Positions 26,492 through 33,111 of a stretch of 64,000 bases of DNA are shown piece by piece. The translations under genes and the position numbers were made by a program. This stretch comes from a virus. The notes under the pieces were generated by a model. It was not told the DNA's origin, ran no database searches, and was given only the letters and a program-made list of their open reading frames with translations. The stretch's first letter is position 1; every line of letters begins with the position of its first letter. The stretch spans positions 80,688-144,687 of IMG/VR virus record IMGVR_UViG_3300047510_001256; one strand, 5' to 3'.

Positions 26492-27214
26492 CTACTTTTT
26501 TGCTTCTTCAATCTCCTGACGAAGTTCTGCTTCTTCCTTCATTGCCTTCTTCTTATTGATGACGGCACTTACTTTCTTACGACGGGCATGTAGATACTTG
26601 TCAGACTTGTCATGATCACCATCGTTATCAATATCCTTATCTTCTTTACCTACAGGATCCATCTTCTCAGTGATGATCTCTTCAGCAAGAATTCTATCTG
26701 CGAAGTATTCAACATCCTCTTTCTTCATTGGAACGCACTTGTCCTTTCCATTCTCAGTGCCAGCATACTTATATCCTTTCCAGCAAGCCTTGCCGTCAGC
26801 ACCTTTCTCTTTCTCAAGAACGAGAGTATAGTTATCAAACTCAATCTCATACATCTCTTTCTTCATCATCTTCTTCCAAGAAGACTTCTTATCCATCTTC
26901 TCTCCCTTCCCTTCCTTCTCACCCTTGCCATGCTCAGGACCGCAAGATTCATCCATCTTCTTCTCGCACTTAGAGCAACCCTTACCATGACAGGATTCAC
27001 ATTCTTTTTTGTATCCCTCTGCTGTTACGCCAGGAGCAGACTCCATGCCAACATACTTGGTGGGTTTTTTAATTTCTTTCTTTTTGAGAGTAGTATTCTC
27101 AATCTCTGCGCCATGAGATTGTGGATCCATTCCATCAAATACTTCTGCTACATCTACAGGTTTGCCAAGGAAACTTGACATAAGGGATTCAGTAAGAGCG
27201 TCTCTTTTTGCCAT
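26492..27214 (-). CDS. K/E-rich modular hypothetical protein (candidate internal head protein)
   Basis: CWKGY...CVP and DPVGKEDKDIDNDGD.D.SDKYL modules; TATAAATA at 27241-27248. Confidence 0.65.
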   Translation of the reverse strand: MAKRDALTESLMSSFLGKPVDVAEVFDGMDPQSHGAEIENTTLKKKEIKKPTKYVGMESAPGVTAEGYKKECESCHGKGCSKCEKKMDESCGPEHGKGEKEGKGEKMDKKSSWKKMMKKEMYEIEFDNYTLVLEKEKGADGKACWKGYKYAGTENGKDKCVPMKKEDVEYFADRILAEEIITEKMDPVGKEDKDIDNDGDHDKSDKYLHARRKKVSAVINKKKAMKEEAELRQEIEEAKK

Positions 27215-27243
27215 TGTATCTAAGTGTGTTCTTCGTTTATTAT

Positions 27244-27447
27244 TTATACTTCTCGGATATCTTTAACCCAAGCGCGGAACATCTCTCCCTCCTCAGTGAC
27301 AGCAATCACATAGTTAACTCCACTACGATGGATTGTTCCCGTTTGACCAGTCGTATTAGACATGATCACATCTCCCTCCTGAAAGATACCTTTGTGTCTG
27401 TATCTCTGGTGAGTTGATTCCTGTCTTAGTTGTTTAAAATTTTTCAT
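27244..27447 (-). CDS. Small SH3-like protein with capsid-targeting-like N-terminus
   Basis: MKNFKQLRQE...IFQEGDVI...G.I.RSGVNYVI...MFRAWVKDI.E. Confidence 0.6.
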   Translation of the reverse strand: MKNFKQLRQESTHQRYRHKGIFQEGDVIMSNTTGQTGTIHRSGVNYVIAVTEEGEMFRAWVKDIREV

Positions 27448-27995
27448 TTCAATCCCATTCCTTCCCTTACAGCGTTGTATAACGATAAAGTATTTGCTTG
27501 TCCTAACGTTTTAGGAATACCTTTCCTAAAAGTAAGCAGATCCATTTCTTTTGCTGCTTCTCTCATCTTACTAGCAGACATACCAGTAGCACCAGGAGCA
27601 TCAGGATCTCGTTCACCAGCAGATACAACTTCCAAGTGTCTATATGTATATTCAACACCATTATATCTACTAATTAAACTTTCATATTCCGGAACTCTAT
27701 CAGATCCAGCAATCAATGTCAAGTCTTCATATGTTCCTTGATATTTTTGAAGTAATTTTATGATAGTATTAATATCTTTATCATAGATGATATGGTCTTT
27801 ATATTGTGGAAACATAAGATGCATATATTGGACCTTTAAATCTGATGGCAATGGATCCGTTGGTTTTTTCTGAGTGTGCGACGGGTAGATAAAGTAGTCA
27901 TCCCTCTTAGCAATTCTTGCTACCGCATCAATCAATTTTTCGTGACCGATTGTTGGAGGATTAAATCTACCCCAGGCAACTACTACTCTGCTCAT
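27444..27995 (-). CDS. HIGH-family nucleotidyltransferase (cytidylyltransferase-like)
   Basis: GRFNPPTIGH, GSDR, SAGERDPD, MSASKMR motifs. Confidence 0.88.
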   Translation of the reverse strand: MSRVVVAWGRFNPPTIGHEKLIDAVARIAKRDDYFIYPSHTQKKPTDPLPSDLKVQYMHLMFPQYKDHIIYDKDINTIIKLLQKYQGTYEDLTLIAGSDRVPEYESLISRYNGVEYTYRHLEVVSAGERDPDAPGATGMSASKMREAAKEMDLLTFRKGIPKTLGQANTLSLYNAVREGMGLK

Positions 27996-29206
27996 TAGTC
28001 TCCAGCAACCCAGTTCTTAGATACATTAAAGTTAGCAACGCTAAATGATAATCTATCCACTAACTTAACCGCATTGGTTCCATTGCTGATAGCAACATAA
28101 CCTTCAGGAGCAGTTATCTTATATCCATCTTCAGTTCTAAGGTAAGTTCCAAACTGCTCACCCTTCTCAAGTTTACGAACAAAAAAGTTCTTAGCATTCT
28201 GTAATGTAGTATATAGTCCAACCGCCTTGAGTAAAGCAGTTTCATTTGATTCAATGAAATCTAATCCAGCGTATAACTTAGCGAGTTTAGCGGCTTTTGC
28301 TTTTGGTGTCTTAACTTTATCCGCTGCTTTCTTTACCTCATCTTGAAAATATTTCTTAAAGTCATCAACAAATTTCTTAGCACTACTCACTCTTCGTCCC
28401 TGACGAACGTATGTGTTGAAATAAATTTTCAGTCTTGGTCCTACAGTCAGTTGATCGTTCTCTTCAATCTGCTTGGCAACTTCATCTAAAAAATTTCCAG
28501 CAACACGAATAAGACTAGCTCCAGCAGTTTTCATTCGCATGAGTCTTTGCTTCTCTTGCTTTGTGATGAGAGTATCTTTTCCAAGTTGTCCAGTCTCAGC
28601 AGAGAGAACTAAAACATCTGGGCTTTTGTTTAACTTAGATATATCATATCCAAATGTAGCATTTAAATTTTCAACTGAGTTACCTTTATATGTGGTATGA
28701 AATACCACACCTATCTTTGCTCGCTTTGCTTTTTCATAAAATGGAGATCCTTCTGGAATAGCATATGTGATGGTATTAGGTTGAAATGTGATACATCTTT
28801 TACCATCAATGGTTTCGTATTTTTTGTCGTCAGTAAAAAGTAAATCTCCTTGAGCAACTCCTGTAATTCCAAGCGCAGGAAAATATTTTAAAGCATCCTT
28901 AAGTTTAGATACCAATCCAGGAGCATGTCCATGATTCCTATCAACATCCTCCGGAGTTATGTTTATTTTTGCGTCCTTATTAAATACAGATTTTGTTCCC
29001 ACAAAGAATTGATCTGTTCCAGGATACATACCACAAAATATAGCTGGAGCCCCATCCCATTTGGTTGTAATTTTAAAATTATTGTTTCCCTGTCCAGTAA
29101 AAGTTTTAGCAAGTAGATCTAAAAATTTAAACGCATCACTCGCACCTTGCTTACCATCAAGCAAGATACTATCTTCTAAATGTTCTAGGTGTGTGTTCTT
29201 ACTCAT
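27995..29206 (-). CDS. DUF6267-type protein with ATP-dependent ligase/capping-enzyme nucleotidyltransferase motifs
   Basis: HLEHLED; TTKWDG (motif I), QGDLLF, PEGYVAI, VKLVDR. Confidence 0.7.
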   Translation of the reverse strand: MSKNTHLEHLEDSILLDGKQGASDAFKFLDLLAKTFTGQGNNNFKITTKWDGAPAIFCGMYPGTDQFFVGTKSVFNKDAKINITPEDVDRNHGHAPGLVSKLKDALKYFPALGITGVAQGDLLFTDDKKYETIDGKRCITFQPNTITYAIPEGSPFYEKAKRAKIGVVFHTTYKGNSVENLNATFGYDISKLNKSPDVLVLSAETGQLGKDTLITKQEKQRLMRMKTAGASLIRVAGNFLDEVAKQIEENDQLTVGPRLKIYFNTYVRQGRRVSSAKKFVDDFKKYFQDEVKKAADKVKTPKAKAAKLAKLYAGLDFIESNETALLKAVGLYTTLQNAKNFFVRKLEKGEQFGTYLRTEDGYKITAPEGYVAISNGTNAVKLVDRLSFSVANFNVSKNWVAGD

Positions 29207-31035
29207 CTTAGGACAGTTCTGATTCCCTTTACTTCCATTTTATTTTTTATTTGTTTATAAAATTGTTTAAAATCAGTCGTGATGAAAACTTGGAACTGAG
29301 GAGACGCAGTGATGGCCCCTTTATATCTTACCTCCAAATTTAACAAAGGAAGATTATCAAGTCTCATAGTGTAATACAATTTGGCAGCGGATGCCGTAGG
29401 TTCAAATGCTTGACTCTTACCATTCCAAGTTTCTAACACCATAGCACCAGGCTTCTTAATAGCACTAGGATTACCAATTGAGTTTATTCCCGAAGAAAAC
29501 ATAATATTAAAAATTTCTTTCATCAAAGCTGTGCTCTTTTCATCAACTTTTCCCACAACAATTTTTCCAGTTCTCTTATCAATACTTCCCGTTCCAGTAA
29601 TCAAACTAAAATAGAAGTGGGAATTTTTGACGTATTCGTTAATATCTAATCTAAAAGCAAGATCTAAAAATTCCCTAAAGTTATTAGGGTCTGACATCAC
29701 ACGACGAAATACTTTATCTAAAGTTTCAAAGAAAAAATTATTGGGATATTTTGTTCCTCTATATTCTTTTCCTGTAAGTGAAGCATTTTTATCATCTCCA
29801 GAGAGAGCATTGTTTAATTTAGTTTTCCAATCAGAAGCAGGTTTTGTGGGCCAGTTTGTTGGTTCTACATTATCACCTAATTTTTTTCCAGGAGGAAACA
29901 ATGGAGGTGGTCCAAGTTTTACCATATAAACTTGCTTCCAAAAATTTTCTTCAGCAGTTTTCATCTCATTTTTTTCATTGCTCTGTGCTTTCAAATAAAG
30001 GTATCCAGCTTTTTGCTTACCACTTGCAGAAGCTTCACCAACCAAAGGTTTATTTAAAAGAGTTGGGTCATCATTCAAACCCGATTTTTTCTTTAAAGAT
30101 ATTCCCCAGTAATATTCAACACTATCTTTAGTAAATTTTATAATTAAATCGGACGAATTGTATGCTTTAATTAATTGATCTTTAGTAGGATCTTTTCCTT
30201 GCAACCCAGCTCGCTTGAGTTCAGCGTCCCATTTAGAACCTGTTTGAAATACTTTATTCACATTAGCATTATTTTTTCTCATTAAAAAATTAACCCAGTT
30301 AGAGACAGAAAGTGCTTTTGCTAAATTTACAATATCTCCCTCAATTAATTTTGCTTCTTTGTTACTATGCCCTATAACTTGTGTATAATTTGAATGAATT
30401 TCTTTAGTAATTTTATTAAGTGCTTCATTTCTATCAGCAACATTCATCGTATTGATGTTTGATACCGGAATAATTTTACCCATAGCAATCAAAGTTCCAG
30501 TCATCAATTCATGAGGATCTCCTTTATCCGATGTAAGACCCTTCGCATAGATCACAAAAAGATTGATTGGACTACCTTCTATATTTCCATCTTCATTGTA
30601 TTTAAATGCTCTCAAATAAATTGTGTTTGCTCCGTCAGAGTAAGATGCGTTTCTAGTAAAAGCCCAATCTTCAACAACAACATTCATTAAATTCATCGCA
30701 AAGTATGACTGATATTCTAGTCTAATACTTTCCAAGTGTGGTCCCATAGCATTCCACACTTTACTCAATACATTATTTCTCTGATTGTTATTGTGAACAG
30801 TTATTTTTAATCCGTATCCAGACTTTTCCAACTTCCCAACAGACCTATTGTTATCTACTGGATGAGTATAGGCAAAATCATCATCAGATAAACCACTATT
30901 GTGTTGAGAAATTACTTTAGCAATATCAATTCTCTCAGCAATAATTTTAGATTGTCTCTCGTAAAATTTTTTGGCAACATCCGATGATGGACTTATTTTC
31001 CCGACATTATTTCTAGTAAGTTTTTTTACTGCCAT
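29203..31035 (-). CDS. Putative PD-(D/E)XK-like endonuclease (about 610 aa)
   Basis: DPHELMT...SSDLIIKF...GISLKKK. Start moved to ATG 31035 because the track start lies inside tRNA-Ser. AATAAATA late-type motif at 31061-31068. Confidence 0.55.
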   Translation of the reverse strand: MAVKKLTRNNVGKISPSSDVAKKFYERQSKIIAERIDIAKVISQHNSGLSDDDFAYTHPVDNNRSVGKLEKSGYGLKITVHNNNQRNNVLSKVWNAMGPHLESIRLEYQSYFAMNLMNVVVEDWAFTRNASYSDGANTIYLRAFKYNEDGNIEGSPINLFVIYAKGLTSDKGDPHELMTGTLIAMGKIIPVSNINTMNVADRNEALNKITKEIHSNYTQVIGHSNKEAKLIEGDIVNLAKALSVSNWVNFLMRKNNANVNKVFQTGSKWDAELKRAGLQGKDPTKDQLIKAYNSSDLIIKFTKDSVEYYWGISLKKKSGLNDDPTLLNKPLVGEASASGKQKAGYLYLKAQSNEKNEMKTAEENFWKQVYMVKLGPPPLFPPGKKLGDNVEPTNWPTKPASDWKTKLNNALSGDDKNASLTGKEYRGTKYPNNFFFETLDKVFRRVMSDPNNFREFLDLAFRLDINEYVKNSHFYFSLITGTGSIDKRTGKIVVGKVDEKSTALMKEIFNIMFSSGINSIGNPSAIKKPGAMVLETWNGKSQAFEPTASAAKLYYTMRLDNLPLLNLEVRYKGAITASPQFQVFITTDFKQFYKQIKNKMEVKGIRTVLR

Positions 31036-31071
31036 TCCTACAAGTACAATGCCACAGGAATATTTATTAAG

Positions 31072-31155
31072 CGGAAAGGGTGGGATTTGAACCCACGGTG
31101 CTACTAACACGGCAGTTTTCAAGACTGCTGCCATAAACCACTCGGCCACCTTTCC
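31072..31155 (-). tRNA. tRNA-Ser (TGA)
   Basis: GGAAAGGTGGCCGAGTGG...GCAGT CTTGAAA ACTGC, long variable arm, GGTTCAAATCC...CTTTCCG. Confidence 0.95.
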
Positions 31156-31722: not shown

Positions 31723-33111
31723 TTAATAAAATTCAGAAAATTTACTTATCCTGTTCTTGTTGTCAAAGACTCCAACATTCGCATCCTCTTCTAGGAAATC
31801 AAGATCAGATGCTAGGTCGCTGTCATCTCCAACATTATAGAGCTTCATCTTCGCTCTGTCAATACCCACTTTGAACTTTCGTTTGTCTGTGGGATCGTTG
31901 TATCTGTTCTTCAACTGCTTCACCATGATGGTGCCTTCCTGTTCTAATTCCTCTGTGGAGATTAAAGCAAACATAAAGTCAGCAGTAGCAGGAAGACCGA
32001 ATGATTCGGAAGTGTCAGTCAGTTCCAGATCAGTATTACCAAATCCAGAACGAGTTGTCTGTGTAGCAGAGACCAAAGGCACCTCATACTTCACAGCAAG
32101 ACCACGAAGTTCTTCAGCAATAGACTTCACGAAAGTGTAAGAGTTCACAATGGAACCTTTGAGTCTTGCTGAGTTACAGATGTTGAGATAGTCAACAAAG
32201 ATGATATCCGGTTTGAATTCTTTCTTAAGAGAAAGTTCATTCAGCAATGCTTGGAAGTGTCCAGCATGTGCTGATGCTGTTGGATACTCTTTGATGATCA
32301 ATCTACCACGAGTCTTGCGACTCAGTTCTTCAACAGAACTTTTGAAACGATGCTCAGGAATGCTCACCAGATCCTTGATGTTAGTGTCAAGAAGGTGGGC
32401 GTCAATCCGTTCAGCAATCTTTTCCTCTGCCATCTCTAGAGTGATGTAGAGGACGTTGTAACCATCCATCAAACACGATCCTGCCATGTGGCACATGAAC
32501 AGAGATTTACCAACACCAGTGCCAGCAAGGGCAATGTTCAGTGTCTTCTTAGGCAGTCCACCTTTAGTGATGTAATTAAAGGTGTCAAGATCAAAGGCGA
32601 TCTTCTCTTCTGTTTGATGATAGAAGTTGTATCGTTGATCAATACAATCTAGATAGTCGTGTCCGATGTGTTCATCAAACGATACTCCCAGGGCCTCTTG
32701 TAGGATACTTGGGATCGCATCCTTTGATAGTTTTTTATCACTTCCTTCCGCGATCTTGACTGACTTGAGTAAAGCATTGTAGATTGCTCGCTCCTGACAC
32801 CATTTCTCTGTGGCATCAACGAGCCAGGAATAATCAATCTCAGTATCCGAGAATGCCTTGACCATCTCCACAGAGTTTTTAAGATCGTCTTCAAAGACAT
32901 CTTTACGAGAGTTAAGTTGAAGAATGACAACTTCTTTCGTCGGGATCTTGTCGTATTTGGTAGAGAAATCATAGATCTCTTCATAGATAAATTTTTCAAC
33001 TTGTTCAGCAAAATAGTCTGGTTTGATATGAGGAATGACTTTACGATAGTATACGGGATCATTCAGCAAGTTGCGAAGAATCGTATTCTCAAGTCGTTCA
33101 CTCATCGTCAT
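31723..33111 (-). CDS. gp41: Replicative DNA helicase (T4 gp41)
   Basis: AGTGVGKS, TLEMAEE, IKEYPT, DYLNI, SATQTTRSG, SESFGLPATAD. Confidence 0.96.
   Translation of the reverse strand: MTMSERLENTILRNLLNDPVYYRKVIPHIKPDYFAEQVEKFIYEEIYDFSTKYDKIPTKEVVILQLNSRKDVFEDDLKNSVEMVKAFSDTEIDYSWLVDATEKWCQERAIYNALLKSVKIAEGSDKKLSKDAIPSILQEALGVSFDEHIGHDYLDCIDQRYNFYHQTEEKIAFDLDTFNYITKGGLPKKTLNIALAGTGVGKSLFMCHMAGSCLMDGYNVLYITLEMAEEKIAERIDAHLLDTNIKDLVSIPEHRFKSSVEELSRKTRGRLIIKEYPTASAHAGHFQALLNELSLKKEFKPDIIFVDYLNICNSARLKGSIVNSYTFVKSIAEELRGLAVKYEVPLVSATQTTRSGFGNTDLELTDTSESFGLPATADFMFALISTEELEQEGTIMVKQLKNRYNDPTDKRKFKVGIDRAKMKLYNVGDDSDLASDLDFLEEDANVGVFDNKNRISKFSEFY

Follow-up and report, generated by a model that had tools for sequence, protein, structure and literature searches.

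The DUF6267 protein of T4-like cyanomyoviruses, a predicted ligase-type nucleotidyltransferase linked to a HIGH-signature enzyme

What is the function of a protein of 403 amino acids that belongs to two families, Pfam DUF6267 (E 1.9e-128) and phrog_455, neither of which has been assigned a function? This question is raised by a locus in a stretch of 64,000 nucleotides (positions 80,688 to 144,687 of IMG/VR record IMGVR_UViG_3300047510_001256), which is referred to as the window and is derived from a T4-like cyanomyovirus. The viral contig has a length of 144.7 kb and is estimated to be 76% complete, and the best public DNA match of the window is Synechococcus phage S-MbCM7/ACG-2014h (72%). The gene for the DUF6267 protein (27995-29206, minus strand) is followed on the same strand by the gene for a 183-residue nucleotidyltransferase with a HIGH-type signature (27444-27995). 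An initial annotation, made from the sequence alone, had proposed that the 403-residue protein is a covalent lysine-nucleoside monophosphate (NMP) transferase working together with the HIGH enzyme in RNA/tRNA repair, capping or nucleotide-signal modification, possibly as a counter-defence, and that both form a module with a nuclease-like protein and a tRNA. The analysis presented here suggests, with moderate confidence, that DUF6267 is a polynucleotide ligase which seals nicks and is coupled to an NMNAT-like enzyme that would supply its adenylyl donor or cofactor.

Fold and motifs of the DUF6267 protein

For the 403-residue protein, a structural model was built with AlphaFold (AF2) on an alignment of 96 relatives sharing 34-68% identity, on which the statements about invariant DUF6267 residues are also based. 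The model is confident, with a predicted local distance difference test score (pLDDT) of 94.4 and a predicted template modelling score (pTM) of 0.90, and it contains the nucleotidyltransferase domain fold. In a structural comparison, the Naegleria RNA ligase NgrRnl (5cot) was identified as the closest match with a score of 8.6 over 185 aligned positions, followed by the trypanosome ligase REL1 (1xdn; 8.1, 192), T4 Rnl2 (1s68; 7.4, 178), the ligase domain of Trl1 (7.0, 198) and T4 Rnl1 (6.5, 163). DNA ligases were found at 5.5-6.7 over 152-176 positions, and the remaining matches were confined to the helical part of the model. A second comparison gave the same picture, with ligases in 47 of 50 rows, RNA ligases at the top and NgrRnl at 9.0. 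The Foldseek search against the PDB was weak, with T4 Rnl1 as the top match (E 0.03), and the structural matches in BFVD were members of the family itself, followed by viral RNA ligases. As far as can be judged from the model, the closest folds of DUF6267 are thus those of the nick-sealing RNA ligases NgrRnl, REL1 and T4 Rnl2.

The initial annotation had also recognized TTKWDG, QGD, EGYV and KLVDR as ligase motifs occurring in this order. The order is not a chance arrangement, since the key residues are invariant in all 96 relatives; the invariant positions are H9, K49, D51, G52, P54, K72, D121, Y148, H170, E368, G369, K381 and F388. Motif I, K49-W-D-G, is encoded at 29051-29062 (minus strand), and K49 is predicted to be the lysine which accepts the NMP. 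In the model, K49 closes the strand formed by residues 44-49, the next strand comprises residues 55-60, and KWDG is located at the turn between them. D121, Y148, E368-G369 and K381 each lie within a predicted strand and are collinear with motifs III, IIIa, IV and V of T4 Rnl2, and the segment from motif IV (E368-G-Y-V) to motif V (K381) is encoded at 28064-28105 (minus strand). The corresponding segments of DUF6267 and T4 Rnl2 are KITTKWDG and REKIHG, GTKS and AKRTG, AQGDLLF and VFGEFAG, TITYAIP and DFYVFDI, PEGYVAIS and AEGYVLKP, and NAVKLVDRLSFS and VAIKCKNSKFS. While EGYV of motif IV is identical in both proteins, motif I is KWDG in DUF6267 and KIHG in Rnl2, and the second motif V lysine of Rnl2 is replaced in DUF6267 (K381-L-V), with R385 being conserved. 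In a short form of the S-RIM2 type (298 residues), most of the insert described below is lost, and every invariant residue is retained.

Between motifs IIIa and IV, the model contains a helical insert of about 130 residues (216-348), without which the spacing of the two motifs is similar to that in Rnl2. The insert has a median net charge of +7.5, whereas the core is neutral. It is the sole element added to the nucleotidyltransferase domain, and a C-terminal nick-sensing domain of the Rnl2 type is absent from the model. This distinguishes DUF6267 from NgrRnl (Rnl5 type; PDB 5cot, 5cou and 6vt9), which shares 11-12% sequence identity with it and contains an N-terminal OB-like domain instead of a helical bundle inside the nucleotidyltransferase domain. 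Members of PF09414, like T4 Rnl2 and REL1, differ from DUF6267 in that it is recognized neither by PF09414 nor by profiles of PDB sequences. In comparison to T4 gp30 and the Chlorella virus DNA ligase (PF01068), DUF6267 lacks the OB domain, motif VI and the DNA-binding domain, and gives no PF01068 signal.

Based on the modelled fold and the conserved motifs, the 403-residue protein is assigned with high confidence to the nucleotidyltransferase domains of the ligase superfamily, of which it appears to be a member too divergent to be placed in any curated ligase family. Because the ligase/capping enzyme fold occurs here with a complete and invariant set of motifs, a covalent Lys49-NMP intermediate is the natural prediction. 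From the initial proposal of a covalent transferase, the fold and the motifs were thus borne out, and the adduct itself stands as a prediction from the model.

Linkage of DUF6267 to the HIGH-signature enzyme

The strongest result was obtained from gene neighbourhoods. Using DUF6267 as the query, 80 loci from IMG/VR and 53 contigs of metagenome-assembled genomes (MAGs) were collected, the latter with an alignment of 12 sequences; loci flanked by 6 kb or more of sequence (31 from IMG/VR and 21 from MAGs) were regarded as informative. Of these, 30 and 18, respectively, have a HIGH nucleotidyltransferase gene downstream of DUF6267 in the same orientation, amounting to 48 of 52 (92%), with a median gap of 425 nt; in the other four informative loci no HIGH enzyme is encoded downstream. 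All five complete genomes tested that have a DUF6267 gene also encode the HIGH enzyme, among them that of a Vibrio jumbo phage with a distance of 16 kb between the two genes. Fusions of both proteins, in either order, were identified in several metagenomic proteins, and for phage S-PM2 a DUF6267-HIGH fusion of 591 residues is present in BFVD, with a TM-score of 0.95 to the model of the 403-residue protein. In the RefSeq genome of S-PM2 (NC_006820; L085:3495-5274), the DUF6267 region is split into p141, an open reading frame (ORF) of 192 residues, and p142, a 390-residue 'cytidyltransferase' which contains the C-terminal half. Because BFVD holds the intact fusion, the split appears to result from a frameshift in the older sequence. 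The suggestion that the 403-residue protein works together with the HIGH enzyme is therefore well founded in gene linkage and in fusions of both orders.

In cyanomyoviruses, the pair is located in the replication cluster, with gp41 and MazG on one side and gp61 and nrdA on the other. Among the Synechococcus-phage records of the phage collection, 366 contain DUF6267, 375 the HIGH enzyme and 377 gp41; among the 'Cyanophage' records the number is 61 for each of the three, and among the Prochlorococcus-phage records it is 24 both for DUF6267 and for the HIGH enzyme. Both genes are thus near-universal in cyanomyoviruses. The family as a whole is large, with at least 8000 candidates in a word-index search and 2411 matching clusters at 50% identity. 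Homologues of the HIGH enzyme with 25-31% identity were also identified in enterobacterial, Pseudomonas and Erwinia jumbo phages, in which DUF6267 was not detected. Since the HIGH enzyme occurs alone in other phages and DUF6267 is seldom found alone, the dependence looks one-way, the ligase-like enzyme needing the HIGH enzyme. Judged by this linkage, the HIGH enzyme would be an obligate, functionally tied partner of DUF6267, a feature by which the system differs from NgrRnl.

Matches to DUF6267 in bacterial and archaeal genomes (L088-L140) are nearly all located on MAG contigs assigned to many unrelated phyla, several of which have a length of 100-190 kb and a phage-like gene order. These contigs look like phage contigs that were mis-binned into MAGs. 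One match came from an isolate, Nonlabens xiamenensis 1Q3, in which it is located on a 188-kb contig.

The 183-residue partner is remotely NadD/NMNAT-like. It scores 30.6 bits on PF01467 (cut-off 21) and belongs to phrog_3041/395, with phrog_395 spanning this protein and the 67-residue protein encoded next to it. The signature GRFNPPTIGH noted by the initial annotation is present (27942-27971, minus strand), and eight of its residues are invariant in the family (G9, R10, N12, P13, P14, T15, G17 and H18). T15-I-G-H18 and a second motif, S140-A-S-K-M-R145 (SxxxxR, within MSASKMR), are invariant or nearly so. With the NadD, NMNAT and NadR enzymes of PF01467, it shares the (T/H)xGH and SxxxxR motifs and the Rossmann-type family, and relatives of it carry kinase fusions, as NadR does. 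Its nearest solved relatives are the NadD-like proteins 3h05 and 2h29, at E values of 0.006-0.03 only. In comparison to the NAD+ restoration systems NARP2 and NARP3, neither a Nampt nor a PnuC partner was noticed for it, and a link to a ligase fold was not found in the NARP papers that were consulted.

The 67-residue protein (27244-27447, minus strand) corresponds to a domain which is fused directly behind the nucleotidyltransferase domain in 27 loci. By this arrangement, its family is best regarded as the normal small C-terminal domain of the HIGH nucleotidyltransferase, split off as a separate gene in the window. The SH3-like fold noted for this protein by the initial annotation is putative, with a language model relating the protein to R67 dihydrofolate reductase-type clusters at a weak score of 0.81. 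The family is labelled 'ribonucleotide reductase alpha subunit' or 'NrdB' in phrog_4808 and in Atlas cluster names, and these names appear to be a propagated misannotation.

In many relatives, the HIGH domain is part of proteins of 400-1100 residues. In 22 loci it is fused to a nucleotidyltransferase of the Pol-beta type whose GS...DLD motif is intact, in at least seven proteins to Zeta-toxin/AAA_33 P-loop kinases and in at least six to DUF5824; a PAP2 phosphatase, DUF6321 and an ATP-grasp domain were each found once. The fusions of the Pol-beta type with the HIGH and 67-residue-type domains (L012:7678-9660 and 21 other loci) comprise about 750 residues, contain the sequence LIGS...DADLDIN, by which they are apparently active, and have an invariant N-terminal E-SIIDIPR junction. 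For this fusion family no solved relative was found by sequence, and the search of the PDB with a profile of the Pol-beta domain was uninformative. The fusions suit polynucleotide end processing, with kinase, phosphatase, template-independent polymerase and ligase activities, and NadR-like cofactor synthesis equally well.

Similar N-termini are, in addition, found on many relatives of the two enzymes. In a survey of the DUF6267 and HIGH-enzyme alignments, together with L003:3881-8544 and L086:5194-6282, 32 of the 96 DUF6267 relatives under a strict pattern, and 50 of the 96 under a loose one, were found to start with a peptide of the type MKxFxxFLxE (for example, MKSFKQFLSE and MKNFKSYLSE). 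The strict pattern occurs in 33% of the relatives versus 2.6% of background ORFs, and similar starts are present on many HIGH-enzyme proteins. The peptide resembles the start of T4 ipII and ipIII, MKTYQEFIAE, which serves as a capsid-targeting sequence and is cut off by the prohead protease. In phage Melnitz, four consecutive genes of the module code for such a peptide, namely those for DUF6267, the HIGH enzyme, an upstream protein and a 130-residue protein. The cytidylyltransferases of S-SZBM1 and S-CREM2 have been detected in purified virions (PMC9146016, PMC10665884), and the S-SZBM1 protein starts with MRFRQFIIEA. This suggests that the module enzymes may be packaged and injected in such phages. 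In the window, the 403- and 183-residue proteins are devoid of such a peptide, and the start of the 67-residue protein, MKNFKQLRQE, matches only in part and lacks L/I-x-E; for this reason packaging may be lineage-specific.

A nick-sealing ligase and alternative functions

In the proposed mechanism, Lys49 of KWDG would attack the alpha-phosphate of a nucleotide donor, resulting in a lysine-bound adenosine monophosphate (AMP), while the nucleotide and the metal would be held by D121 (motif III), Y148 (IIIa), E368 (IV) and K381/R385 (V). The AMP would then be moved to a 5'-phosphate end, and attack by the 3'-OH would seal the break. The basic helical bundle of about 130 residues may replace the OB or C-terminal domain by which other ligases grip the nucleic acid. 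In the most economical reading, the HIGH enzyme would make or regenerate an adenylylated dinucleotide similar to NAD+, which serves the ligase as donor or cofactor. A genuine AAA_33/Pnk kinase was not found in the cyanomyovirus genomes scanned, and because of the lack of a Pnk-type kinase the likeliest substrate would be a nick with ready 3'-OH and 5'-phosphate ends, located in DNA or RNA of the phage or in an RNA-DNA hybrid. The chances that DUF6267 is a divergent nick-sealing enzyme of the RNA ligase type which is coupled to an NMNAT-like supplier are judged to be about even. The conserved N-terminal HLEHxED of DUF6267 resembles SLENHY of the ATP-dependent T4 Rnl2, and for this reason NAD+ is neither favoured nor disfavoured as the AMP donor.

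Several results weigh against a ligase charged by an NMNAT-like partner. A Pfam scan of the 403-residue protein returned DUF6267 only, with no PF09414 match at E values up to 1, and an NCBIfam scan returned nothing. The profile of the 96 relatives identified no ligase among all PDB sequences, and hhalign comparisons of the DUF6267 alignment with the single sequences of T4 Rnl2 and gp30 gave nothing, so that sequence homology to any curated ligase family is undetectable by the methods used. In the aligned ranges, E368 corresponds to E312 of NgrRnl, and K381 falls at or beside K326 of NgrRnl, onto K306 of REL1 and into the K225/K227 region of Rnl2; these correspondences are arithmetic on aligned ranges and not a residue-by-residue superposition. 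The model contains no OB/motif VI domain, and the chain ends about 20 residues past motif V. The 183-residue partner reaches 22.3 bits on the NadD equivalog TIGR00482, far below the cut-off of 112.45, and the fusions of Zeta/AAA_33 kinases to HIGH enzymes also suit NadR-like small-molecule metabolism. Finally, the Vibrio jumbo phage 2.275.O encodes DUF6267 together with a canonical DNA ligase (PF01068) and an RNA ligase, for which reason DUF6267 is not simply a replacement ligase.

Among the other searches, phmmer comparisons of the 403- and 610-residue proteins with all PDB sequences gave no meaningful match, and a language model pointed to PF09414 for DUF6267. The only match of the DUF6267 profile in the PDB, a Lys/Glu-rich stretch of ribosomal protein eS8, was rejected as a low-complexity artefact.

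The location of the pair between gp41/MazG and gp61/nrdA, and its near-universal presence, would also suit a role of DUF6267 as the replicative or repair DNA ligase that cyanomyoviruses seem to lack. It would join Okazaki fragments and close nicks ahead of packaging, with NAD+ being regenerated by the partner from nicotinamide mononucleotide and ATP. A review reported that homologues of the gp30 ligase and of RNase H (rnh) are missing from cyanomyoviruses, leaving distant homologues possible (PMC2984593). In agreement with this, PF01068, PF01653 and PF09414 were not found in four complete genomes (S-MbCM7, S-PM2, Melnitz and a 196-kb IMG/VR genome), nor were PF01068 and PF01653 in the contig of the window. 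A precedent exists in jumbo phages, in which NAD+ synthesis genes co-occur with NAD-dependent ligases (PMC11662467). However, RNA ligases outrank DNA ligases in the structural comparisons, DUF6267 has neither an OB domain nor a domain Ia of the LigA type, and Vibrio phage 2.275.O encodes it alongside a canonical DNA ligase. A peptide resembling a capsid-targeting sequence on many relatives would be odd for a replisome enzyme, and a promoter of the late type is located upstream. A dedicated DNA ligase is considered unlikely.

The RNA ligase-like fold would also be expected of a module for RNA or tRNA repair and counter-defence, as proposed by the initial annotation, in which broken RNA ends are healed and then sealed by the ligase, as with T4 Pnkp and Rnl1. 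The fusions of HIGH enzymes to an active Pol-beta nucleotidyltransferase, to Zeta/AAA_33 kinases and to one PAP2 phosphatase resemble end processing, and both the window and S-PM2 have a tRNA gene next to the pair. This tRNA is missing at the eight other loci scanned, and enzymes of the HIGH family are not known to act on polynucleotide ends. A full healing-and-sealing pathway in the style of T4 was rejected for cyanomyoviruses, since no Pnk-type kinase is present; the near-core, rather than accessory, nature of the pair together with the lack of an end-healing kinase argues against accessory repair of the Pnkp/Rnl1 type, so that such a module is judged unlikely. Alternatively, the HIGH enzyme might be an NMNAT that restores NAD+ in a NadR/NARP-like manner, with DUF6267 transferring AMP onto a metabolite or a protein. 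The partner is nearest to NadD and is named nicotinic acid mononucleotide (NaMN) adenylyltransferase by the Joint Genome Institute (JGI), the presence of the cytidylyltransferase in virions would be compatible with such a role, and the kinase-nucleotidyltransferase fusions resemble the enzyme of phage NARP3, which uses a NadR-like route with a kinase step followed by an adenylyltransferase (PMC13464706). A basic insert, however, would be expected of nucleic-acid binding, and the locus shows no Nampt or PnuC partner. Characterised members of the ligase/capping fold are known to act on polynucleotide 5' ends, and nucleotidylylation of a small molecule or protein is regarded as distinctly unlikely.

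A nick-sealing ligase supplied by its HIGH partner is thus retained as the favoured reading. A bolder version of it, which must be called improbable, would see in DUF6267 and its NMNAT-like partner a long-missing ligase system of T4-like cyanophages and numerous other marine phages, in which a minimal nick sealer is charged from an NAD+-like dinucleotide regenerated by the partner. By means of a T4-type targeting peptide, both enzymes would in many lineages be loaded into the capsid and injected along with the DNA, acting right at the start of infection.

Genomic context and implications

All genes of the locus are encoded on the minus strand, with uvsX, the gp41 helicase and MazG located upstream and late or structural genes downstream. 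The box AATAAATA, which resembles a T4 late promoter, is present at 31061-31068 (minus strand), 2 nt past the tRNA-Ser gene and 26 nt ahead of the ATG at 31035 of the gene for the 610-residue protein. The ORFs for the 610-, 403-, 183- and 67-residue proteins overlap successively at ATGA, TAATG and ATGA, so that the initial description of a late-type box directly after tRNA-Ser, preceding four overlapping genes, was accurate. A further box, TATAAATA (27241-27248, minus strand), overlaps the stop of the 67-residue gene and is likely the late promoter of the next gene. ATAAATA boxes are read as late promoters in T4-type phages. The sequence ATAAATA occurs 17 times in the window, versus 18 copies expected by chance, which is no excess; all 17 copies are located on the coding (minus) strand, and this bias and the boxes fit T4-type late promoters. 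Expression of the pair probably starts from the late-type promoter, with which packaging of the module enzymes would be compatible. A perfect sigma-70 consensus (TTGACA, 17 nt, TATAAT) was identified at 31834-31862 (minus strand), within the 3' end of the gp41 helicase gene and directly upstream of MazG, and is a candidate early or middle promoter.

The 610-residue protein (29203-31035, minus strand) contains a C-terminal PD-(D/E)xK nuclease fold like that of the monomeric restriction endonucleases HinP1I and MspI, in agreement with its initial description as nuclease-like, and an N-terminal domain that is weakly Pol-beta/RelA-like. The D-x11-ISLK motif proposed for it has to be corrected: the invariant residues are S295-D296-x16-S313-x-K315 (D296-x15-ISLK), whereas the nearer D304 varies. 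In the HinP1I/MspI/HhaI family, the position equivalent to Ser313 is occupied by E, Q or N. Because a serine takes the place of the expected acid or amide, nuclease activity of the 610-residue protein is uncertain. HhaI, a member of the same structural family, contains SD-x11-EAK (PMC7026639). The 610-residue protein further differs from these enzymes by an additional N-terminal domain of about 170 residues, and its gene is phage-encoded and has no methyltransferase partner. No relation was found by hhalign between its family and the Pol-beta domain fused to HIGH enzymes. Its family, phrog_3060, adjoins DUF6267 in only 2 of 56 IMG/VR and 0 of 35 MAG loci with upstream flank, and in S-MbCM7 and S-RIM2 its position is filled by phrog_1462, which has no detectable similarity to phrog_3060. 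The nuclease was therefore rejected as a conserved partner, and is regarded as a lineage-specific neighbour.

The tRNA-Ser(tga) gene (31071-31155, minus strand) is likewise regarded as a neighbour. S-PM2 also has it upstream of DUF6267, while the eight other loci scanned have no such gene next to the pair, and it was excluded as a module component. From the proposed four-part module, only the pair of DUF6267 and the HIGH enzyme is thus conserved in gene neighbourhoods.

Downstream of the 67-residue gene, a charged late protein of 240 residues is encoded (26492-27214, minus strand). By direct BLAST, about 45 of its residues form a conserved segment that is also present in S-PM2p145, S-MbCM7_156 and S-RIM2_177, the first two of which link the protein further to gp137 of S-SZBM1 and to an internal region of Melnitz gp18. 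The related proteins are encoded behind the HIGH enzyme or fused to it in other phages, and gp137, a protein of 457 residues, was found in S-SZBM1 virions (PMC9146016). The 240-residue protein is possibly a further member of the conserved gene block. Among the 610-, 403-, 183- and 67-residue proteins, PADLOC identified no match to a defence system.

A full-text literature search for 'DUF6267' and 'cytitidyltransferase' returned no paper mentioning either term, and no description of a ligase paired with a HIGH nucleotidyltransferase was found in the literature searched. The fold assignment, the obligate pairing with the HIGH enzyme, the internal helical module and the targeting peptide would be new within a well-known superfamily, with an internal helical bundle instead of an appended domain representing a new ligase architecture. 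The assignments would also correct the labels 'hypothetical protein', 'cytitidyltransferase' and 'ribonucleotide reductase alpha subunit', which have spread over hundreds of genomes. T4-like cyanophages are among the most abundant viruses of the ocean, and the pair is encoded by practically every one of them, as well as by metagenomic viral contigs numbering in the thousands. The ligase gap of cyanophages has been noted in reviews since 2010, with host enzymes being assumed to fill it; the near-core DUF6267 protein now provides a concrete candidate.

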